Sequence record: PZ379074.1
From: a phage
Strand: one strand, 5' to 3'
DNA: 64,000 bases
The first letter of the stretch is position 1. Every line of letters begins with the position of its first letter. The notes beneath the pieces are model-generated. The model saw only the letters and a program-made list of their open reading frames with translations, did no database searches and was not told the origin of the DNA. Of this stretch, positions 20,297-55,702 are shown one piece after another. A program made the translations under genes and the position numbers.

Positions 20297-22660
20297 TTAT
20301 TTCGCTGCTTTTAGCGCGGCTATTTCTGCCTCTAGTGACTCGACCTTTTTCATCAACTCCTGCACCACGTGCATCGTATCCAAAAGCATAGGTGTGGTGT
20401 CAAGTTGCTTTTGCTCAACTTCGACACCTTCACTTGGATAGAATTTAATCGTTTTGACATACAACGGGTCAATAGTCTCTGCCTGTTGAGCAATAATCCC
20501 TCTTCTCACCCTTTCCTTTTCATCATTGTTGTAGATGAAAGTTACATACTCCAGCAATGAAAGGTTGCTCCATGCTTTTTCTACCGTTCCTGGTTGTATG
20601 TCATGCTTCAAATTCTCATCAGAGATGGCATTCTTCTGAAGAGTGAAGAAACTGTCAGAGCCTGGAACGGATACTGAAAAGAATACGTCCTCTACGTTAG
20701 GCTGGATTTGCATCTTTGTTTGATACTTTGCATCATCATCACCAGAAGCAATCCACGTAGCTTGCGCAAAACTTCCATTGTTGTTGTGAATCATGCCATG
20801 GTGAACAGTAGTTGCGTATCCTGTATTAACAGATTGACTACCACTGATAAGGCTGTTGAAGCCATAGTTCTGACCAAGACCCTGACGAACCATCGAGAAG
20901 GTGCCTGACTTTGATCCTGTTTCAGCCCACGACATTAACGTTCCGTACCGTGCCGCAAATCGGTCAGACCATAATAGACCGTCATCAGTCAAGCTGATGT
21001 CTTTTTCTTTACCTGCAGTGACGTTTTTTACTGATAACTGGGTGGAATATGACCCACCCATCGTTGCTGATGTGTAAACCGTTCCTTGCGCTTCGATGGC
21101 AGTTCCAATCTTGTATTCAACGCTTACTTTCCCTGATTCAACTCTCGTTCCGTCTATCGGTCTGGTGGCGTCACCGTTGATAACACTCCAAGACGTTTTC
21201 GCGGCAACAAATCCGCCCGATGCACGAATCACCCAAACGCCGATGAAGTTGCGCGGCAAAATGTTATCCGAAACGCCATATCTGCCATAAGTGCCATTCG
21301 AATAACTTGCCCTAAAGTTCAAGGTGTTTAAACGGCCTGGTGTTGCACCAGTACCGCCTGGTATCGTTTCACCAGCCCCTTGAGGGTATAAGTCATTGTT
21401 TGTGTAAAATGCGCCTCTTACGGCTGTACCGAAAATTTGCGCGTAAGTCCCTTGAGACACGCCTGCCGCAGAACCTGCAATGTCTGGCGCAGCCGCTTCA
21501 TAAATTGTCCCGTCATTGGAAGATGTTCCGCCATCACCTCGCCCAAAAAGCTCCTTGATTGATCCTGTCTGAACACCGTTTCTGTCCGGCACACGGAATG
21601 TAGTTGTGCCATTACCCAAAGAATATTTACCACGCTTTTGGGCGTCAGCAAGCCAGTCAGCATCCGCAATAGGTGATAACATTTGCGCGTATGCCCAAAG
21701 TTCAGGCCAGTCAGCGCGATTCAGCAATTGTCCGTCTGCAACGACTTCATACGGTTGAATATATGCACGACTGTCTCGCAAGTGGAAGTCGCCGACGCCA
21801 TAGTTCATAACACCGTTCATGCTTGGGCCAACGGTGCCTGTGTTCACTAAGTTCTCAACCCAACGCTTGGTTGCAGCATCATAATCGTTTACCGGATCAC
21901 CAGCAAGCGGAGTCGACCCTTGTGGACGAATATTCAACCAAGCTTGAGCATTGTCTGCTGATCCTGTGCCGCCCATGGAAGTTGGGACGATGCTTTGATC
22001 AGCAACAGGGCCAAATCCAAATGCATCTTTCATTCCTTGAATGGTTGTCTGCCCCGTTCCGCCATTTACAATTGGAATCGTGCTTTGCGTACTATACATC
22101 TGCACCCAATCCGACCAGGATGATGAGCCAGCATTGTATAGCCTTTGGTATATGGCGTTGATCCAATAAGGCGTATATCTTTGGACGCAACTTTCTCCTG
22201 CGACGCCAGTCTTGTAGACTTCAAGAATGCCAGCTTGTGAAACTGGATAGTTCAAAGCCGATGATGCGCCAGCATTTGCTGATTGATGATATTGGCCAAA
22301 CCATGAACCAGTCAAAGCATTGAGATTTATTCCGTTAGGAATCTCCCCAAAGTTTCGGACGGTGCCCGTCAAAGTCGCGGCAGTAGTTCGAATGGAAAGC
22401 ATATCGCCAGCCGCCCATGCACGCGCTGCAGTTCCTTCTTGTGCACGCTGCACGGTCAGAACGTTTCCAACCACGGCTGTTACTGTGACGATTTCGAATT
22501 GGAGGCCTGTTGCAGCGTCGACGATTGTCGCCACTACACGCTCGTTTGCGCCCAAGGTCGGAAAGCCCGACCCTGAGCGAATTGTGATGGTGGTGTCTGA
22601 AGTCGTGGTTGGCTGAGCCAGTGCGACCTCAAAGTTGTTTTTGAATATTAGCCTTGGCAT
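20297..22660 (-). CDS. Tail fiber/tailspike protein with C-terminal intramolecular-chaperone-like (peptidase S74-type) domain
   Basis: 787-aa ORF; Gly/Thr/Ser-rich body; C-terminus ...HDIQPG...YVTFIYNNDE...RRGIIAQQ... ending in coiled-coil VESLEAEIAALKAAK. Confidence 0.8.
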   Translation of the reverse strand: MPRLIFKNNFEVALAQPTTTSDTTITIRSGSGFPTLGANERVVATIVDAATGLQFEIVTVTAVVGNVLTVQRAQEGTAARAWAAGDMLSIRTTAATLTGTVRNFGEIPNGINLNALTGSWFGQYHQSANAGASSALNYPVSQAGILEVYKTGVAGESCVQRYTPYWINAIYQRLYNAGSSSWSDWVQMYSTQSTIPIVNGGTGQTTIQGMKDAFGFGPVADQSIVPTSMGGTGSADNAQAWLNIRPQGSTPLAGDPVNDYDAATKRWVENLVNTGTVGPSMNGVMNYGVGDFHLRDSRAYIQPYEVVADGQLLNRADWPELWAYAQMLSPIADADWLADAQKRGKYSLGNGTTTFRVPDRNGVQTGSIKELFGRGDGGTSSNDGTIYEAAAPDIAGSAAGVSQGTYAQIFGTAVRGAFYTNNDLYPQGAGETIPGGTGATPGRLNTLNFRASYSNGTYGRYGVSDNILPRNFIGVWVIRASGGFVAAKTSWSVINGDATRPIDGTRVESGKVSVEYKIGTAIEAQGTVYTSATMGGSYSTQLSVKNVTAGKEKDISLTDDGLLWSDRFAARYGTLMSWAETGSKSGTFSMVRQGLGQNYGFNSLISGSQSVNTGYATTVHHGMIHNNNGSFAQATWIASGDDDAKYQTKMQIQPNVEDVFFSVSVPGSDSFFTLQKNAISDENLKHDIQPGTVEKAWSNLSLLEYVTFIYNNDEKERVRRGIIAQQAETIDPLYVKTIKFYPSEGVEVEQKQLDTTPMLLDTMHVVQELMKKVESLEAEIAALKAAK

Positions 22661-45433: not shown

Positions 45434-46162
45434 ATGATGGCAGAAAAGTTAACCCAACTTACAAGCCCCAACCAAACTGACAAATCAAGTATGTTTGCCG
45501 CGCTGCAGGGAATGCTGGACCGTGGCAAGTATACCACTGACGGCATGATTCCTGCACAAGTAATATCTTATGACCGCAAACAGAATTTAGCAGTCATAAA
45601 GCCTGTTATTCATTTCGTAAGTCTTGATGATAAACCAGTGGAGCGTCAACCACTGGTGTCAATTCCTGTATTGGCAATCGGCGGCGGCGGCTTCGTAATC
45701 AACTTTCCTCTGAAAGAGGGTGATTTGGGCTGGATATTCGCTGGCGACCGCGAGTTGTCGACATTCCTTGAAGAATTGAAGCCGACCGCGCCTACCAATG
45801 GCCGCGTGAAAACTTTCGCTGATGGACTGTTCATACCGGATGTATTTCGAAAATACACTATAAGCGGAGAGGATGCAGGCTCAATGGTAATCCAGTCACT
45901 CAGCGGCGCTGTCCGCATTGCATTAAGTGATGACTCGATAAACATAACTGCATCGGCTGGAGTAAATGTGAAAACACCAATAACCACTATCGACCAACAA
46001 TTGATAGTTAATGGAAAGGCAACGTTCAATGGTGGTATAGAAGGGAAAGAAGGAACGACGGCAACGCTTCCGACTGGCACAACAATCGGCGGCACAAATG
46101 TATCCACTCACGGTCACATAGGTAACGGACCTGGAAACAGAACTGGGGATATGATAGAATGA
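45434..46162 (+). CDS. Baseplate spike/hub protein (gpV-like)
   Basis: ATG at 45434 after AAGGAG; Gly-rich central segment. Confidence 0.55.
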   Translation: MMAEKLTQLTSPNQTDKSSMFAALQGMLDRGKYTTDGMIPAQVISYDRKQNLAVIKPVIHFVSLDDKPVERQPLVSIPVLAIGGGGFVINFPLKEGDLGWIFAGDRELSTFLEELKPTAPTNGRVKTFADGLFIPDVFRKYTISGEDAGSMVIQSLSGAVRIALSDDSINITASAGVNVKTPITTIDQQLIVNGKATFNGGIEGKEGTTATLPTGTTIGGTNVSTHGHIGNGPGNRTGDMIE

Positions 46163-47430
46163 GTGCACAATATTCTTACATAGTAAGCACTGGTGTAATA
46201 ACCATCGACACAGCCGATTTGCTGGCTGACGTTCAAAGTGAATGGATTGAGTCATTAGGGGTCGGGCTTGACGTTGATGCCTCGACACCGCAAGGCACCC
46301 TAATCGCAACGGAGACTTTGGCAAGAACTTCAGTGATGAAGAACAACGCCGAGCTGGGAAGTCTCATCAACCCAAATTATTCGTATGGCGTATACCTTGA
46401 TGCCATCGCGGCATTGCTTGGGATTGAGCGAACTAAAAACATCAGCACGATGCTAAAAGGAATTACCGCAGAAGGAACGCCGCTGTTGGAAATTCCTGCT
46501 GGAAGTTTGCTGACGGATTCAAATGGTACATACTGGTATGTTCTGGAAGACGTTCAAATCGCTTCGACTGGCAAGACAAGCAACATGACTCTTGCATCAA
46601 AAGAGTATGGCTCATTTACTGTTGCGCCTGATGAAGAGTTTACCGTGGTGCAAGGCTATGACGTCATCGGATGGTCAAGAACGTATTCAACATCAGCAAC
46701 GACAACCGTGCCAGGTACGCAATACATGGGCGACGGAGCGTTAAAGGCCGCTCGCGTTAAGCGCCTTTACCAGCAGGGAATTGCATCGCTTGGTGCCATT
46801 CGCGCTCGTGCCATGTCGGTCGACGGCGTGGAATCGGTGATGGTCGTGGAGAATGACACGGGATTGCCTGGAACGGTGCGCGGCATCACCTTTTCAACGC
46901 CTAACGGTGTCTGGGTGTGCGCAAGCGGAACGTTCGATAAGCAAGTTTTTGCTGAGACTATTTTCAAGGCAAAGATGGGTGGCCAGCCGTGGGACTTTGG
47001 TGCTACCAACCAGGGTGATCCAGTCAACTCGCCTGATGGAATAGAAGTTGTCGACGAAGAATCGCAACTGTCTTATTTCGTAAAGTTCAACACTGCTGTC
47101 ATATATGACTTGTATGTCGACATTACTGTTGTAAGAGGCACCGCAACCGCCGATGCCGAATCTATTATTGCCGCTGTGTTGAATTACGGTAATGGAAATT
47201 TTAACGGCGAGCAAGGATATGCAGTGGGTCAATCTCAATCTTCTTTTGAGATTGCTTCAGCAGTGTCTTGCGAGTATCCAGGTCTGTACATTAAAGATTG
47301 CAAAATTGCAGCAGTTCAAAGCGGACAGGCAGCGCCAAATTATCCATCCGATTACGGCAGCGAGTGGATTGCCAATCCTTGGGATAAGGCTAATACTATG
47401 CGCGGCTTCATCAACGTTAAATTTGTGTGA
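46159..47430 (+). CDS. Baseplate J-like protein
   Basis: 423-aa ORF; size and position between spike and fiber genes. Confidence 0.65.
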   Translation: MSAQYSYIVSTGVITIDTADLLADVQSEWIESLGVGLDVDASTPQGTLIATETLARTSVMKNNAELGSLINPNYSYGVYLDAIAALLGIERTKNISTMLKGITAEGTPLLEIPAGSLLTDSNGTYWYVLEDVQIASTGKTSNMTLASKEYGSFTVAPDEEFTVVQGYDVIGWSRTYSTSATTTVPGTQYMGDGALKAARVKRLYQQGIASLGAIRARAMSVDGVESVMVVENDTGLPGTVRGITFSTPNGVWVCASGTFDKQVFAETIFKAKMGGQPWDFGATNQGDPVNSPDGIEVVDEESQLSYFVKFNTAVIYDLYVDITVVRGTATADAESIIAAVLNYGNGNFNGEQGYAVGQSQSSFEIASAVSCEYPGLYIKDCKIAAVQSGQAAPNYPSDYGSEWIANPWDKANTMRGFINVKFV

Positions 47431-47436
47431 GGAACT

Positions 47437-50175
47437 ATGCAAAAGTTTGACACAAACCTGTTGCAAAACCTTAAGTGGATGCAGAACAATGCGCCAAACA
47501 TCACATCTTTGGTGCAAAAGAAAAGTGACTGGTATGAAAGATACCAAGATCAGTTTTGGACTGACTGGTACAATAACATTTTTAACATTGACACTTGTGA
47601 TGCAATGGGCATCTATATTTGGTGTGACATCCTATGCATACCAAGGGATTTTGTTGACTTAAGCAACTATGAGCACAACTGGGCGTTTGGACCCACACGC
47701 GACAACTTCGAAGGGCCGGAAAATATCGGCGGCAACTTCTTTGGTGCTGGCGGAAAGGTTGTGAAAAACATCGAAGAAGCCCGCATCCTTCTGAAGCTTC
47801 GTTATCTGACGCTTACAAGTGATGGTCGCATAGAAAGCATCAACCGTATGCTTAAGTGGATTTTCAACCGTGGAGAAGATTGGGATTACTCTTCATCGCG
47901 CTACGCATATGTTACAGATAATACTCAAGGCGCGGTGTCTTCTTCTGAAGCAACAAACGGCTCATTCCTTCTGTACGACTGGCAGGGGTCAACTGAGATT
48001 CAGCACGATTATAAGCAGATACTTTTAAGCCATGGCAACAATGCCGGACTGACCATCAGCGGAGTATCAGGCACCGTGTCACGGATGGCGCATCCAGATT
48101 GGTACTCATGGGGGAATGGTTCCGGCACAGGCCTTGTCGGTGGCGACACCAGACAGTACGGCGGCCCTGATTACTATGGACAGTTGTGTGGCGATTACCC
48201 AGGTGAGGCAATAGAGAATTTTGCCAACGCAGTAAGGGTCGTCAAGACGGCTTCAAGCGGTGAGCCTGTGTATTCTTTGGCTAATAATCCAAGCGCACAG
48301 TCAATTGCCCTTCCTTCGCAGGCTGGCGTTAACGTTTGCTATAGCTTCTACATAAAGGTGCTTTCTGAAAACGTCGCTTCTGTTTCTGTTACAGAGAATA
48401 GTGATGCATCGAGCAATGGAAAGCTGTTTGACCCCGTCACTGGCCAGTTCAACTTGGACCCGTCATTGAGCTATTTCATCAAAGGCAAATTCGATGGAGT
48501 AAGAAGGGAATCAAACCGTGGTGGCATAAAAGCAATTGGCGGCGATTGGTATCGAATCTGGATTGTAGAACAAACTGCGAACGCGACAGCTGGGGTAAAC
48601 ACAAGCTTTTCAATAGAGTTGAAGGCGACTGCCGCTGGATCAACTCAGACTCGTGAATTGCCTGAAGGGTCTGATGCACTTCTTTTTGGATACTCGATTT
48701 GCGTCTGCGACCCTGTTCAGAATCCAAATGGACCTGAGCCTTATTTCTATGGGACTCAAAATCCTCCTGCAGATGGAACGGCAATCCTGTCTGTTACGGC
48801 AGGAACGCTCAACAACATATCTTGCGCAAACGGTCCGTTGACCACAAGGGATGGCGTGGTAGGTGAATCATTCATGCAGCCTGGTTCATCGCTTGCATAC
48901 TCTGGTTCAATCGGCGGCTACCCGTACCCAGGAAACGCAACATTGATTGCAGAGACAGATGGAATCAGACGCTCATGGAACGTTAGCAGGCTTGATGGAG
49001 TACCGCCGCCGCCGACCGCTGACTATTACATGGAATATGTCATCGGGCCTTATTTCGCCAACAACTTATCCGACAACTTTAAGACGCTAGTTGGCGACAG
49101 GAATGAAGGATTCTTGCCAGCAAATGCCGGAATACGTTGGCAGCTTTACCAAGAAGTCGCAGACTTATCTGATATTGATTTGACCGTCAGCAACATAACA
49201 GACACGCGAGTAGGATTCGAAACGGAAGGTGTCGCATGGATTAACACTGACGGCATCATCAGAGTTGGCGGCATAAACGAGTGGCCGTTGAACAACTTCA
49301 AAGGTGTTATACGACAGCTTGAATCTTTGAAAGGTGTGAACCAAGTTATCGACGGCGCACTTGTCAACGACTATTCAATCTCAAAAGCATCAAGAGATGA
49401 TTTTGGTCGTGAAATCCCACGTGCCGCGATCACAAACTACTGGCGATACACACAGCCCAATGACGGCACATCTTTTGGAAATATCGTCAAGGACGGAGAT
49501 AACACGGTAACGGCGACGCCAATCAGCGGTGTGCCCAACCAGTTCCCATCATTCAAGCTTTCCGCTACAATAGGGACTGTGCCAGCGTCCGGCTATGCAC
49601 GTGCTGTACTTGCTACTAAATACACTGGCAACCTGACTGGTCCTTTGTCATTTATCGCAATAGTTAAAAACAACACGGTAAACGGTCAAAAACTTTTCGT
49701 AACCGTACCGGATGGTATGGGCGGCTATATCCCTAAATTCTACAGCATAGGCGCAGGTGATTTGCAACGTATCGAAATTGACCTTGCCGCTGAGATTGTT
49801 GCAGGAACGACTTGGGATGGTTCGACAGGTGGAATCAGCATTGGTTTGATATCAGGGAAGGATTTGCCGACCGAAGTTGGTACGACTCTTGAACTTGATA
49901 TTTTAAGCTTGATGCTTGTTTCTGGTAATACGATGAATGCGCTTGCGATTTCAACAAGCGAAGACTTTGCAAAGAAAACTGCAACTTCTATATACATCAA
50001 AAACCCAGGGTCACTGGCGACTGGAGTTCAATTGATAGCTTCGAATGGGGATGTTGTAGCGACAGTAAACTTTCCAAGAAGTGCTGCTGGCGGTTATGTT
50101 TCAAGCATGAATATAACTGACTTAACTGGTGATTGGGCATCAACCCTTTTATCAAAAATTAAATACATCGTGTAG
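47437..50175 (+). CDS. Large baseplate wedge / tail fiber structural protein
   Basis: 912-aa ORF, RBS TGAGGA. Confidence 0.65.
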   Translation: MQKFDTNLLQNLKWMQNNAPNITSLVQKKSDWYERYQDQFWTDWYNNIFNIDTCDAMGIYIWCDILCIPRDFVDLSNYEHNWAFGPTRDNFEGPENIGGNFFGAGGKVVKNIEEARILLKLRYLTLTSDGRIESINRMLKWIFNRGEDWDYSSSRYAYVTDNTQGAVSSSEATNGSFLLYDWQGSTEIQHDYKQILLSHGNNAGLTISGVSGTVSRMAHPDWYSWGNGSGTGLVGGDTRQYGGPDYYGQLCGDYPGEAIENFANAVRVVKTASSGEPVYSLANNPSAQSIALPSQAGVNVCYSFYIKVLSENVASVSVTENSDASSNGKLFDPVTGQFNLDPSLSYFIKGKFDGVRRESNRGGIKAIGGDWYRIWIVEQTANATAGVNTSFSIELKATAAGSTQTRELPEGSDALLFGYSICVCDPVQNPNGPEPYFYGTQNPPADGTAILSVTAGTLNNISCANGPLTTRDGVVGESFMQPGSSLAYSGSIGGYPYPGNATLIAETDGIRRSWNVSRLDGVPPPPTADYYMEYVIGPYFANNLSDNFKTLVGDRNEGFLPANAGIRWQLYQEVADLSDIDLTVSNITDTRVGFETEGVAWINTDGIIRVGGINEWPLNNFKGVIRQLESLKGVNQVIDGALVNDYSISKASRDDFGREIPRAAITNYWRYTQPNDGTSFGNIVKDGDNTVTATPISGVPNQFPSFKLSATIGTVPASGYARAVLATKYTGNLTGPLSFIAIVKNNTVNGQKLFVTVPDGMGGYIPKFYSIGAGDLQRIEIDLAAEIVAGTTWDGSTGGISIGLISGKDLPTEVGTTLELDILSLMLVSGNTMNALAISTSEDFAKKTATSIYIKNPGSLATGVQLIASNGDVVATVNFPRSAAGGYVSSMNITDLTGDWASTLLSKIKYIV

Positions 50176-50185
50176 AGGAACGGCA

Positions 50186-51973
50186 ATGCCAACACTTATT
50201 AACAGACCTTTCGCGCAAAGCGGTGATGTATCCGTGGTGCCGGATGCAAGCCCAAGCGGTTATGTAAACTTCCAGCGCGGCTACACCCCTGACTATGCGC
50301 TTGCTCTGGAGGCTGGAAACGTCGCCGCGAAAGCTGTTGAGCGCGAATCGATGAACTGGTTGCTGAATTTGATCACAGACAACCTTATGTTTATTCAAGA
50401 TCATGGCGCTCAACAATATTTCTCTTCTGACTTGAAGCCTGATGGATACCCGAAAAATGCCATCGTTGTCAGCAACTCTGGAACGCCTTCAGCACCTGAG
50501 TGGCGCATCTTTCAGAGCGTGGTCGACGGCAACACAAGCGCCGTACCAGCTAACGGAGAAACGGAATCTTGGCAGGAATTAACACTGCCCAGCGAAGCGC
50601 GAAAATACATTCCGATGCCTGCTGGCGGCGATGCGCAAAACCCGTACTTTGTTCGCGGATTGATTTCAAGTTTTGTGGACTTCGATAACATCACGACATC
50701 CACAACTATCGTCATTCAATCCGATGCCGTCGCCGCTCTGTGCTCTAACATCCCGAATGCGGTTGGCGCAACGAAGGTTGCAGGTCGACTGCAGGCCTGC
50801 GCTTGGCAGGTCGATGCGCAAACCTTTGCCTTGCAGCAATATACATCAATGAATGGCTATTTGTTTACTCGCTCTTATACTTCTGGTGCTTGGAGTGCTT
50901 GGATTCAAAATGCCACTGTTCAAGATGTGCAAATTGGAACGCCGAATCTTGCATCAGGTAAAGGTGCGCAAGATATAATTCTCACCGTTCCAGCAGGGTA
51001 TTCATGGCCTCCGTCAGCAGGTAGTCGCCTGACAATCGTCAATGATGTAACGACTACCGGACCTGTCACCGTGACCATTGGTGTAAACAAAGTTGCCGTT
51101 CTTGGATTCGACGGCGGCGAGTTGCCAGCTGGCGCTATCGTAGGATTGCTGCCATTCACCATCATTTATGACGGAACTGTTTGGCGTCTCCTTCAGGCGT
51201 TTGGCGCGGCGCAAATCGGCGTTGATGCTACTGAGCCGCAACAGTTTGTTACAAAGCGCCAACTCGATGCTTTGGCTGCGAAGTTGATCACTATGGGTGA
51301 TGTGTTCGAAGTCGGTGAGACTCGATTCCTCACCAACGGGACCAACCCGAATACTAAACTGGGCGCTTACGGCCAGGTATGGACACGACTGCCTGATAAC
51401 ATGGTGATTCGCACGTCCGGCGCTGCACGAAACGGTCTTGATACAGGCGGAGCAGACTCTGTTACCCTTACCGCCGCCATGCTTCCTCTCCACAATCACA
51501 GCGTGAACATTACCACGCGACAAAGTGGTCCATGGTCCAATACCACTGGAGACGCAGGCAACCACAACCACACAGGCGATACCAGTCAAAACGGCGCTCA
51601 CGTGCACGGAATGGACACGGCAGGCAACCACCACCATGACAGTAGCTGGGGTGAAGCCAATACTAGCGATGCGCGGTACGGCGTTTATGATGGGACACAC
51701 AACAACTTCGGAAGTCGCAAAGGCGGCGACTGGGATAACTACAAATACAATACGTCAACTAATGGCAACCACGTTCATAATATTCAATCTTCTGGATCAC
51801 ACACCCATGGGTTGAATATAAATTACGCTGGCAATCACAGCCACAGCTATACCCTTCCCGCTCACACTCACGATGTGGTCGGTAACACTGGCAATGCAGG
51901 GCAGTCGGTGCCAACGGCTGTTGCGACTTTGCCGCGATACGTTGTTTTGAATGGCTGGTACAGAAGCGCATAA
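50186..51973 (+). CDS. Tail fiber protein with C-terminal HxH repeat (metal-binding-like) tip
   Basis: ATG at 50186 after AGAGGA; C-terminal NHNHTGD, AHVHGMD, NHHHDSS, HVHNIQSSGSHTHGLN, NHSHSYTLPAHTHDV. Confidence 0.7.
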   Translation: MPTLINRPFAQSGDVSVVPDASPSGYVNFQRGYTPDYALALEAGNVAAKAVERESMNWLLNLITDNLMFIQDHGAQQYFSSDLKPDGYPKNAIVVSNSGTPSAPEWRIFQSVVDGNTSAVPANGETESWQELTLPSEARKYIPMPAGGDAQNPYFVRGLISSFVDFDNITTSTTIVIQSDAVAALCSNIPNAVGATKVAGRLQACAWQVDAQTFALQQYTSMNGYLFTRSYTSGAWSAWIQNATVQDVQIGTPNLASGKGAQDIILTVPAGYSWPPSAGSRLTIVNDVTTTGPVTVTIGVNKVAVLGFDGGELPAGAIVGLLPFTIIYDGTVWRLLQAFGAAQIGVDATEPQQFVTKRQLDALAAKLITMGDVFEVGETRFLTNGTNPNTKLGAYGQVWTRLPDNMVIRTSGAARNGLDTGGADSVTLTAAMLPLHNHSVNITTRQSGPWSNTTGDAGNHNHTGDTSQNGAHVHGMDTAGNHHHDSSWGEANTSDARYGVYDGTHNNFGSRKGGDWDNYKYNTSTNGNHVHNIQSSGSHTHGLNINYAGNHSHSYTLPAHTHDVVGNTGNAGQSVPTAVATLPRYVVLNGWYRSA

Positions 51974-51981
51974 GGTGATTT

Positions 51982-52626
51982 ATGATTAATGCAAACGTAA
52001 TATCTAAAGGGACAGGATGCAGCACGGATATTGCAGAAAATTGGGTGGACCCTTTCAAGCAGGCTTGTGAGCACTACGGAATAAAAAGCAAGAATGCCAT
52101 TGCAGCATTCCTTGCAAACGTAGGAGTAGAGACGGGCGGCTTGAAGACCTTTGTGGAAAATCTCAACTACTCTGCACAGGGACTTGCCAATACATGGCCT
52201 AGTCGTTACAGCGTCAACGGTCGTGCTGGAAGCGCCCCGAACTCATTGGCCCTGTCGATTGCCCGTAAACCTGTGGAAATCGCCAATAATACATATGCAA
52301 ACCGCATGGGCAACGGTTCAGTAGCATCTGGCGACGGTTGGAAGTACCGTGGCCGTGGTGCCATTCAGCTGACTGGAAAGGCCAACTATGCGGAATATAC
52401 GCGTCAATCAGGCTATGATGCATTGAACAATCCTGATATTCTGACTGAACCAAAATACATTGCTGACAGCGCGGCATGGTTCTTTAAGAATAGCGGCTGT
52501 ATTCCTCTTGCGGATGCAGGAAATTTTGATTCAACCGTTAAGCGGATTAACGGGGCCGCGCCGAACGCGGCAAACCACGGTGAGTTGCGAAGAAAGCGTT
52601 ACAAAGATGCACTAGCAGTTATGTAA
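51982..52626 (+). CDS. Endolysin, glycoside hydrolase family 19 (chitinase-like lysozyme)
   Basis: YRGRGAIQLTGKANY matches GH19 signature; ETGGL motif. Confidence 0.85.
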   Translation: MINANVISKGTGCSTDIAENWVDPFKQACEHYGIKSKNAIAAFLANVGVETGGLKTFVENLNYSAQGLANTWPSRYSVNGRAGSAPNSLALSIARKPVEIANNTYANRMGNGSVASGDGWKYRGRGAIQLTGKANYAEYTRQSGYDALNNPDILTEPKYIADSAAWFFKNSGCIPLADAGNFDSTVKRINGAAPNAANHGELRRKRYKDALAVM

Positions 52627-52659
52627 GAAAAAGGCCCATATGGGCCTTTGTTTATTTTA
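52627..52659. terminator. Bidirectional rho-independent terminator (GGCCCATATGGGCC flanked by A-run and T-run)
   Basis: Perfect palindromic stem followed by TTTGTTTATTTT; between convergent genes. Confidence 0.7.
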
Positions 52660-55186: not shown

Positions 55187-55702
55187 TTATTTTTCCTTTG
55201 ATGCATTGAATTGATCGATTTTTATTTTAGCCTGATTATAAGTATCAATCAAGCTATTAACTTTCTCTTTTAATCGATTTGTTTCTGCGGCGAACTGAAC
55301 AAGAAATCTGACATCCTCTTCTGATAGTCCACAGTTTCCTTCTGGGATAGAGAGGCGTCCAGTGGTCGCAGAGTCGGGCACACTCCTGAGTAACTCACGG
55401 GAGCAGCTGAGTTGCTCGCGCAACTTGACATTCCCAGACTTGTAACGAGCAATAGTGTCATCAGCAACCAGTTGCGCTTCCTGGCGACCCTTCTCATATG
55501 CCGATGCCGATTCAACCTGTAAAGTTGCAATTTGCTCTTCGAGTGCATTTATCTTGTCCTTACGCTCATTAAGCGATGTCAGATATTGATTATCCTTGGC
55601 CAGTGATGCGTTGGTTTGCTGCAGGTCTTCAACGTATGATCCAGCGGCAAACGCGCCAACAAGGGCCAGAATCTTCAGGAGCGGTACAATTCTTTCTATC
55701 AT
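55187..55702 (-). CDS. Membrane-anchored coiled-coil protein (i-spanin-like candidate)
   Basis: N-terminal TM IVPLLKILALVGAFAAGSYV followed by coiled-coil; contains an embedded alternate-frame ORF. Confidence 0.45.
   Translation of the reverse strand: MIERIVPLLKILALVGAFAAGSYVEDLQQTNASLAKDNQYLTSLNERKDKINALEEQIATLQVESASAYEKGRQEAQLVADDTIARYKSGNVKLREQLSCSRELLRSVPDSATTGRLSIPEGNCGLSEEDVRFLVQFAAETNRLKEKVNSLIDTYNQAKIKIDQFNASKEK
55270..55497 (-). CDS. Embedded ORF inside the i-spanin-like gene: lipoprotein-like (o-spanin candidate)
   Basis: MRRVARKRNWLLMTLLLVTSLGMSSCAS: basic n-region, hydrophobic core, Cys; Pro-containing short mature part; speculative. Confidence 0.25.
   Translation of the reverse strand: MRRVARKRNWLLMTLLLVTSLGMSSCASNSAAPVSYSGVCPTLRPLDASLSQKETVDYQKRMSDFLFSSPQKQID

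Follow-up and report, generated by a model that had tools for sequence, protein, structure and literature searches.

A tail fibre gene in the phage record PZ379074.1 ends in a cluster of His-x-His (HxH) motifs, and the question is what this end of the fibre is and whether it determines the host range. The window, which is the whole 64,000-nucleotide stretch analysed here, comes from a Wifcevirus-like E. coli myovirus; the phage is about 68 kb in size and is not T-even. The fibre protein (Table 1) matched PHROG 5717 'tail protein' with an E value of 5.6e-175. The ATG at 50186 is most likely its start codon, because GAGGA is found 8 nt upstream, the upstream gene stops at 50175 and the annotated orthologues start at the same place; a GTG at 50129 was dropped in its favour. 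Two other open frames overlap the HxH region, one of 228 aa on the minus strand (51014-51700) and one of 96 aa on the plus strand (51525-51815). The fibre frame has homologues and evolves under strong purifying selection (dN/dS of 0.02-0.08 outside the head segment), and both overlapping frames were therefore discarded as mechanical ORFs.

Fifteen syntenic orthologues had 95.6-99.8% aa identity to the fibre, sharing high identity, length and locus, and the conservation of the fibre across the genus was about that of the baseplate genes. The nearest record, TH35, was 99.8% identical in the fibre at the aa level and 94.6% at the nt level over a 7-kb region. Judged by sequence, the fibre is orthologous to the tail fibre conserved in Wifcevirus (Bas99_0031 / Bas100_0031, 'Gp32 of ManiWeber' in Humolli et al. 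2025, PMC11990801); the 'Gp32' assignment was made by description and uniqueness, as that paper numbers the genes differently from the GenBank locus tags. The Bas99 fibre has 95.8% aa identity (594/595 aa) and lies between wedge genes and the endolysin gene, as in the window. The feature itself is already known from this near-identical orthologue: its tip has been described as elongated and gp37-like, the HxH motifs in it as conserved, and the protein as highly conserved in the genus (PMC11990801). An AlphaFold 3 trimer of the orthologue gave a gp37-like tip with the HxH motifs at an interface pTM of 0.64 (PMC11990801).

The earlier note had assigned the motifs to a distal tail fibre. This was not borne out, as the fibre is a single chain that matches, over its N-terminal ~370 residues, the baseplate-attached fibre gp47 of Pseudomonas phage Pa193 (phmmer versus PDB 9b45_2 'gp47 Tail fiber', E = 4.2e-32, query 2-372 versus chain 4-368). 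The fibre gene is located directly downstream of the wedge genes, and the next gene downstream encodes a GH19 endolysin. In the window, neither a T4 gp34-37-like half-fibre gene set nor a gp38-like chaperone gene adjoins the fibre gene. The long fibre of T4 is made of four proteins with gp37 at the distal position, whereas the fibre in the window is one baseplate-attached chain of 595 aa. The 912-aa wedge protein encoded just upstream matched 9b45_v 'gp46 Baseplate wedge 2' (E = 1.5e-41) and the E217 triplex protein gp45 (E = 5.5e-41). In Pa193, residues 1-340 of the fibre form three beads that bind a loop of the wedge protein gp46 (PMC11456595). By analogy, the 912-aa wedge protein is likely the docking partner of the fibre. 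The order of wedge 1, wedge 2 and fibre is the same in Pbunavirus (Pa193 gp47, PDB 9B45; E217), and this shared order together with the homology of the N-terminal ~370 residues argues for the same baseplate attachment. At 962 aa, the Pbunavirus fibre is longer, and its C terminus does not align with the tip in the window, the matches ending at residue ~270-370.

Table 1. Features of the fibre locus and of the second fibre in the window; motif residues follow the 595-aa numbering that starts at ATG 50186.
Feature	Position	Strand	Detail
Second, variable 'T-shaped' fibre, 787 aa	20297..22660	-	gp12-like and T5-like receptor-binding domains (PMC11990801)
Baseplate_J wedge protein	46159-47430	+	Pfam PF04865
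912-aa wedge protein, DUF2612 / Pa193 gp46-like N terminus	47437-50175	+	PF11041
Tail fibre gene	50186..51973	+	595 aa plus stop; from ORF list
N-terminal baseplate-attachment and shaft region, Pbunavirus gp47-like	50186..51301	+	aa 1-372
Probable collar-type domain, N-terminal part	51302..51490	+	aa 373-435, ends ...GGADSVTLTAAMLPL just before the first HxH
Ascending needle arm, HxH 1-4	51491..51637	+	spacing 24, 12, 10
HxH 1, LHNHS	51491-51499	+	H436/H438, from residue 436
HxH 2, GNHNHT	51563-51571	+	H460/H462, from residue 460
HxH 3, GAHVHG	51599-51607	+	H472/H474, from residue 472
HxH 4, GNHHHD	51629-51637	+	H482/H484, from residue 482
Head insert, presumed distal tip and ligand contact	51638..51769	+	aa 485-528, DSSWGEANTSDARYGVYDGTHNNFGSRKGGDWDNYKYNTSTNGN; gp12-like at borderline E values; most variable segment
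Descending needle arm, HxH 5-8	51770..51871	+	spacing 10, 12, 9; mirrors the ascending arm
HxH 5, GNHVHN	51770-51778	+	H529/H531, from residue 529
HxH 6, GSHTHG	51800-51808	+	H539/H541, from residue 539
HxH 7, GNHSHS	51836-51844	+	H551/H553, from residue 551
HxH 8, PAHTHD	51863-51871	+	H560/H562, from residue 560
C-terminal return to the collar plus stop codon	51872..51973	+	aa 563-595, ...LPRYVVLNGWYRSA

The motifs themselves were confirmed. At least seven HxH motifs within about 140 residues had been claimed for positions 51480-51900, and eight were found within 127 residues, all inside this interval (nt 51491-51871 of the fibre ORF). When the His-rich 141-residue segment was shuffled, 2.1 HxH motifs arose on average and eight were reached in 18 of 100,000 shuffles. 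Shuffling of the whole protein gave a mean of 0.6, and eight were reached in 0 of 20,000 shuffles. Among the other open frames in the window with 150 aa or more, none had more than two HxH motifs. Tandem or direct repeats in the DNA were looked for as the origin of the motifs, and nothing was found beyond matches of 12-17 nt that encode AGNHxH. The HxH repeats exist at the protein level only.

We then compared the motifs with those of related fibres. All 16 histidines were invariant in 16 orthologues, with the middle residues varying. Six of the eight motifs were found in at least 79 of the 108 members of the wider family: motifs 1 and 3 were invariant and motif 2 was kept in 102 members. Motif 4 was kept in only 3, and therefore not every motif need hold metal. 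The spacing was mirror-symmetric around the 44-residue insert (24, 12 and 10 residues on one side, 47 across it, and 10, 12 and 9 on the other), as expected for a needle that runs up and back. Such symmetry was present in 147 of 156 family members. The needles in the family lengthen by paired 12-residue units, as in P0123 (24, 12, 12, 12 and 10, then 49, then 10, 12, 12, 12 and 9), and the number of HxH units ranges from 2 + 2 up to 7 + 6.

A single C-terminal sequence used as the query retrieved five homologues only and missed the orthologues, and a profile search was used instead. The C-terminal family profile (108 sequences) matched the tip of T4 gp37 (PDB 2xgf_A) with an E value of 1.9e-12, profile positions 124-271 aligning with chain positions 96-237, and the match covered the entire needle, the head and the return arm. 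Its score was 50.5 bits, versus at most 9.7 bits in 4,000 shuffles, some of which left the HxH units intact. According to hhalign, the probability of the match to gp37 was 97.4, and the best-aligned stretch was the descending arm against gp37 residues 957-986. The gp37 tip and the fibre in the window have in common a collar (a probable one in the fibre), outgoing and returning HxH arms and a small head; in both, the collar motif is immediately followed by the first HxH, and the C-terminal ends of gp37 and of T4 gp10 resemble that of the fibre. They differ in that the gp37 tip (residues ~811-1026, PDB 2XGF) has seven HxH motifs, 3 + 4 around a 37-residue gap, whereas the fibre in the window has eight, 4 + 4, and a head of a different, apparently gp12-like type. 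The placing of the HxH motifs in a fibre tip related to the metal-binding needle of T4 gp37 was thus supported by this homology, by the invariance of the histidines and by the published trimer model of the orthologue. A simple sequence signature, a collar motif followed by HxH motifs at mirror-symmetric spacing, reliably flags gp37-type fibre tips, and the family to which this fibre belongs is both very large and already described.

The collar part matched the PHROG 'tail collar' families 19618 (E = 2.4e-15) and 4618, and the family profile matched the C-terminal domain of T4 gp10 (2FKK) over the same part with an E value of 0.012. Homologues of the fibre carry Pfam PF21939 Gp10_C, and the protein in the window matched no Pfam family at E values up to 0.1. 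In the C-terminal return, W, R and the terminal A were invariant or nearly so in the family. An AF2 monomer model of the C-terminal 225 aa (108-sequence alignment) had a pLDDT of 58.7 and an unstructured needle; strands and a helix at a pLDDT of 70-80 were present only in the collar part and at the C terminus, where a strand at residues 215-224 of the construct was packed with the N-terminal collar strands. A Foldseek search of this monomer against the PDB gave nothing significant, the top two matches being gp10 entries with E values of 4.7-5.8.

The HxH cluster very probably forms the core of a receptor-binding tip of the gp37 type on a conserved baseplate-attached Wifcevirus fibre, likely with a conserved secondary receptor or trigger role. 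Three chains would form the collar from aa ~373-435 plus ~563-595. Each chain would run out along a thin needle (HxH 1-4), make a small head (aa 485-528) and come back (HxH 5-8). The trimer would present six imidazoles at every HxH level, and together these would hold one metal ion on the threefold axis. The metal at HxH motifs is Fe2+ in T4 gp37 and Zn2+ in T4 gp12. Up to eight such ions would act as staples that make the needle rigid, and the head at the far end would touch the cell surface.

The head was the part of the fibre that varied most. Variable columns made up 14 of 44 positions in the head versus 39 of 551 elsewhere (Fisher p = 5.6e-6), and the mean dN was 0.098 in the head versus 0.008-0.025 elsewhere in the fibre. 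Three discrete head alleles, A, A' and B, were found; A and B were 75% identical at the aa level and ~71% at the nt level, in a background of 90-97% nt identity. The fibre in the window has allele A, whereas Bas99 has allele B, with a 75% identical head and a 1-aa deletion. In between-allele pairs, the dS of the head saturates and cannot be estimated, and we therefore claim allele replacement only and no positive selection. These alleles, as seen in the sequences, are a new refinement on the described fibre.

The top three PDB matches of the head profile were T4 gp12 entries (1PDI, 1OCY and 5IV5), at borderline E values of 0.012-0.04. The score against gp12 was 19.8 bits versus at most 9.9 bits in 6,000 shuffles (reached in 0 of 6,000), and without the HxH flanks it was 12.8 versus 9.8 bits. 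Residues 443-485 of T4 gp12 (PDB 1OCY, 1H6W, 1PDI) aligned with the segment that begins at HxH 4 and runs across the head, again at a borderline E value of 0.012; in gp12, the aligned residues contain the Zn-binding pair H445/H447 and the motifs G-[FW]-GE ... DWDN, and the metal site is described in PMC3004832. The two proteins probably share the collar type. However, gp12 has a single HxH (residue 445) in a knitted globular domain and no long needle, whereas the fibre in the window has eight on a needle, and the residues after the head differ. It is possible, although we consider it somewhat unlikely, that the 44-residue gp12-like head is an exchangeable cassette whose alleles are recombined in and might choose alternative secondary receptors, such as LPS core variants. 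If so, the head alleles would add a second, unrecognised host-range layer on top of an O-antigen-specific fibre. In this reading, the same heads are borne across the wider family on needles of different length, and that length, counted in paired 12-residue HxH units, might correspond to how deep the surface glycan is. Of the HxH fibre, only the head cassette merits a test for specificity.

The earlier note went further and took the HxH tip for the likely receptor-binding tip and host-range determinant. The variability of the head, with its recombined alleles, is a point in favour of a part in host range, as are the different heads that distant relatives such as P0122 bear on the same needle and the gp37 type of the tip, the head of which contacts the receptor in T4 (PMC12609058). 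However, the genus-wide identity of the fibre is about as high as that of the baseplate genes, and near-identical tips are found in phages with different O-antigen requirements. vB_Eco4M-7 requires the O157 antigen (PMC11074155) and Bas98-101 depend on O16 (PMC11990801), yet the heads of vB_Eco4M-7 and Bas98/Bas100 are one residue apart. Moreover, both head alleles were present in phages isolated on O157:H7 and in phages isolated on K-12 with O16. The second fibre, which matched PHROG 6921 (E = 4e-214) and the L-shaped tail fibre 8hqz_d in the PDB (E = 2e-133), is far more variable, with only 55-83% identity among the same Wifcevirus phages. This 787-aa fibre appears from its sequence variation to be the better host-range candidate, and the authors of PMC11990801 likewise do not see the HxH fibre as the main determinant. 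That role is unlikely for the HxH fibre, and a tip that is at once the primary receptor-binding site and the main determinant is, in our judgment, quite improbable.

Instead, the HxH fibre would recognise a secondary receptor of a conserved kind, the LPS core being one possibility, and would then signal to the baseplate, with O-antigen specificity coming from the variable 787-aa fibre. A secondary-receptor role is the most likely one because the fibre is near-invariant across O-antigen dependences, is found at the single-trigger-fibre position of Pbunavirus/R-pyocin-type baseplates and has a head like that of the LPS-core-binding gp12. For host-range engineering in Wifcevirus, the variable 787-aa fibre should be swapped first, the HxH fibre being more likely a conserved docking or trigger element.

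Two further explanations concern the metal. In the 'Ferrojan horse' idea, iron bound to the tip mimics siderophore cargo or exploits iron-uptake receptors. HxH iron sites in phage fibres are discussed in this way, for example in an Alteromonas phage paper (PMC11705849), and a fibre with as many as eight ions would carry a good deal of metal. However, Wifcevirus infection depends on the O-antigen and not on an iron transporter, and the window holds nothing that bears on an iron function, which leaves this idea very improbable. That the His cluster is a compositional quirk or a low-complexity linker without a metal role, as the disordered needle of the monomer model and the silence of Pfam could suggest, is hardly credible, because the residues in the middle of the motifs and next to them change but the histidines do not, the spacing is strict and mirror-symmetric, dN/dS in the needle arms is 0.03-0.08, and the homology to the solved iron-binding needle depends on residue order, beyond composition.

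Apart from its Wifcevirus orthologues, the fibre in the window resembles the long and short tail fibres of Felixounavirus. In Bas63, cryo-EM of these fibres (gp27/gp26) showed a gp37-like collar, an HxH needle with six or seven HxH motifs, and a head (PMC12609058). Like the fibre in the window, the Bas63 fibres are single-protein fibres on a myovirus with a simple baseplate. The C-terminal 240-275 residues of the fibre in the window aligned with the longer Felixounavirus fibre at 28-31% identity, whereas the N-terminal parts are unrelated and the number of motifs and the head are different.

The segment at 51480-51900 lies within the last third of a plus-strand ORF in the ORF list. GTG 50129, the start of the mechanical ORF, was set aside; ATG 50186 is the likely start because GAGGA is found 8 nt upstream, the upstream gene stops at 50175 and the same codon is annotated in orthologues. 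The 7-kb stretch around this gene shared 92-95% DNA identity with 29 phage records, which were without exception Wifcevirus-type myoviruses of E. coli or Shigella with genomes of 67-72 kb (among them TH35, vB_Eco4M-7, WFH, WFC, ECML-117 and Bas98-100). The earlier note had noticed at least seven HxH motifs within about 140 residues; we confirmed this and counted eight, with first residues at 436, 460, 472, 482, 529, 539, 551 and 560. When the His-rich 141-residue segment was shuffled, the mean was 2.1 HxH motifs and eight were reached in 18 of 100,000 shuffles; shuffling the whole fibre gave a mean of 0.6 and never eight (0/20,000). Chance does not explain the eight motifs. Among the other open frames in the window that span 150 aa or more, none exceeded two HxH. 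No tandem DNA repeat was found behind the motifs in the coding DNA; therefore, their periodicity is old and persists at the protein level only. Two mechanical ORFs in other frames share sequence with the His-rich coding region, and no sign of gene status was seen for either.

Coordinates of the fibre genes, their neighbours and associated features in the window
Feature	Position (nt)	Strand	Size
Second tail fibre	20297-22660	-	787 aa
Baseplate_J protein	46159-47430		
Wedge protein	47437-50175	+	912 aa
HxH fibre	50186-51973	+	595 aa
Overlapping mechanical ORF	51014-51700	-	228 aa
HxH motifs 1-8	51491-51871	+	
Overlapping mechanical ORF	51525-51815	+	96 aa
GH19 endolysin	51982-52626	+	
Terminator-like hairpin	52630-52649		
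Outer nested ORF	55187-55702	-	171 aa
Inner nested ORF	55270-55548	-	92 aa

Pfam gave no match for the HxH fibre, and in PHROGs its C terminus fell among the "tail collar" and "tail fiber" families. Five distant relatives, all bearing Pfam Gp10_C, were found with the C-terminal 225 aa as the query. A profile made from these five matched 1,748 or more proteins (E value of 1e-5 or lower), and an exhaustive single-sequence search gave 310 representatives. A profile of 108 family proteins matched the T4 gp37 tip (PDB entry 2XGF) from the needle through the head to the return arm, with an E value of 1.9e-12 (hhalign probability, 97.4); the E value against the gp10 C-terminal domain was 0.012. The gp37 match was not a composition effect because the real tip scored 50.5 bits, versus at most 9.7 in shuffles (2,000 of residues and 2,000 keeping each HxH unit whole). 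T4 gp37 also has the same layout, with HxH motifs at 883, 915 and 929 and then at 966, 980, 989 and 998. An AF2 monomer of the C terminus had a pLDDT of 58.7 with an unstructured needle, so a Foldseek search with this model was uninformative. The T4-type, metal-coordinating needle at the receptor-binding tip that the earlier note had proposed is thus well supported as a prediction from homology; the putative trimeric histidine geometry and metal occupancy rest on the likeness to 2XGF and on a published AlphaFold 3 trimer of an HxH fibre orthologue, with an interface pTM of 0.64 (PMC11990801).

The motifs of the window fibre are spaced by 24, 12 and 10 residues in the ascending arm, 47 across the central insert, and 10, 12 and 9 in the descending arm. 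The two arms mirror each other about this insert, which is the pattern predicted for a chain that extends to the head and then doubles back along itself. Among other members of the C-terminal-domain family, the spacing was 24, 12, 10 / 36 / 10, 12, 9 in P0122, 24, 12, 12, 12, 10 / 49 / 10, 12, 12, 12, 9 in P0123, and 24 / 46 / 9 in short fibres such as P0125. Mirror symmetry within two residues was found in 147 of the 156 members in which it was testable, a test that is trivial for members with a uniform 12-residue period and weighs most for proteins like the window fibre. The number of HxH motifs in the family ranged from 4 to 13, and the dominant spacing was 12 residues. All 16 histidines were invariant across 16 Wifcevirus orthologues, with variation at the middle position in motifs 2, 3 and 4. 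Of the eight motifs, numbers 1, 3 and 8 were invariant in the alignment of 108 members and numbers 2 and 5 nearly so, while motif 7 was present in 79/108, motif 6 in 22/108 and motif 4 in 3/108. Therefore, the fourth and sixth layers are additions specific to longer needles. The collar-HxH needle-head module is very common, as the size of the family indicates; most carriers are 250-310-aa fibres encoded on contigs no longer than about 40 kb, and HxH motifs in the family are most often divided between the two arms as 4+3, 3+2 or 5+4. One member (within P0001-P0268, the family handles) carries the source label "microcystin-dependent protein."

Between motifs 4 and 5, a stretch of 44 residues (GNHHHDSSWGE...GSRKGGDWDNYKYNTS) resembles T4 gp12 near its described zinc site (PMC3004832), H445/H447 (SYHKHAGGFGE...GTRKGLDWDNRSYFTN). 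The single-sequence match was weak (E value of 1.4), and a profile of 14 heads had gp12 entries as its best three PDB matches (E values of 0.012-0.04). This profile scored 19.8 bits against gp12, with 9.9 as the highest of 6,000 shuffles; without the flanking HxH, the values were 12.8 and 9.8 bits. Homology of the head to gp12 is probable but not proven. Because short fibres with only 2 + 2 motifs, from Xenorhabdus among other hosts, had the same head type and P0122 has the same needle with a different head, the head appears to behave as an exchangeable module. Variable columns made up 14 of 44 in the head (aa 485-528) versus 39 of 551 in the rest of the protein (Fisher P = 5.6e-6), and the mean pairwise dN was 0.098 versus 0.008-0.025. 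Allele A was carried by the window, TH35, kaset, Ro157lw, Bas98, Bas100, vB_Eco4M-7 and one IMG/VR contig, allele A' by RCIP0363 and EC150, and allele B by Bas99, CWP003, RCIP0319 and three IMG/VR contigs. Alleles A and B shared 75% protein and about 71% DNA identity. Since this divergent patch is flanked in several phages by 95-97% identical sequence, the pattern indicates replacement of head alleles by recombination.

Residues 2-372 of the window fibre matched residues 4-368 of the Pa193 "tail fiber" gp47 (PDB entry 9B45) with an E value of 4.2e-32. In Pa193, the matching part is built as three beads, and it binds to a loop in the wedge protein gp46 (PMC11456595). The adjoining wedge gene is gp46 like: residues 4-186 of its product matched Pa193 gp46 "baseplate wedge 2" (E value of 1.5e-41), and its similarity to Pa193 gp46 and E217 gp45 (about 500 aa each) was confined to these residues. 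With this N terminus and this neighbor, the protein is most likely a single-chain fibre docking directly on the baseplate wedge; we therefore rejected its description in the earlier note as a distal tail fiber, the distal half of a jointed T-even fibre. The other ~725 residues of the wedge protein had no Pfam match and could either dock the second fibre or act as an additional module for surface binding. The annotation of RCIP0319 splits the wedge gene into two CDS, in a region with about 124 extra nt. No chaperone or assembly gene lies directly after the HxH fibre gene, where the endolysin is found instead; T4 gp37 requires gp38 and gp57A. 3' of the endolysin lies a strong hairpin resembling a terminator (AAAGGCCCATATGGGCCTTT, with the T-rich tail GTTTATTTTA), and converging minus-strand genes begin there. 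Further on, the inner nested ORF lies within the outer one in another frame; Bas100 has an annotated Rz-like i-spanin and o-spanin pair at the corresponding positions.

The earlier note had also regarded the tip as the likely host-range determinant. Across the genus, the HxH fibre was 95.6-99.8% identical, in line with values of 96-99.5% for the two wedge proteins and 92-99% for the endolysin. O157 antigen is required by vB_Eco4M-7 (PMC11074155) and O16 by Bas98-101 (PMC11990801), yet the heads of vB_Eco4M-7 and Bas100 differed by one residue, and both head alleles occurred among phages isolated on O157:H7 and on K-12 with O16. The second fibre resembled the T5/DT57C-type L-shaped fibre in its middle and C terminus (8hqz_d; E value of 2e-133) and was R-pyocin fibre-like at residues 101-189; its identity among the Wifcevirus phages compared was only 55-83%, with 83% even in TH35, the closest relative. 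A role of the HxH fibre as the primary host-range determinant is thus not supported. Wifcevirus phages have been described with two fibres, the highly conserved HxH fibre probably having a more mechanical role and the variable receptor-binding domains sitting on the T-shaped fibre "Gp114" (Humolli et al. 2025, PMC11990801).

That published HxH fibre is the orthologue of the window fibre, because the description fits only this gene, the sole HxH-rich ORF in the window. The HxH tip is therefore not novel, having been described before in a 95.8% identical orthologue. Both fibres of the Felixounavirus Bas63 have the same collar-needle-head build in cryo-EM, with six or seven HxH motifs (PMC12609058); the window tip was 28-31% identical to the longer Felixounavirus fibre. 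The additions made here are modest: a rule of mirror spacing in which 12-residue units are paired, the likeness of the head to gp12, and discrete head alleles in an otherwise invariant fibre. The gene numbers of the paper (Gp32 and Gp114) disagree with the GenBank locus tags, in which Bas99_0031 denotes the HxH fibre, Bas99_0032 the endolysin and Bas99_0109 the T-shaped fibre, so that mapping the BASEL paper onto PQ850618.1 (ManiWeber Bas99) by number picks the wrong gene.
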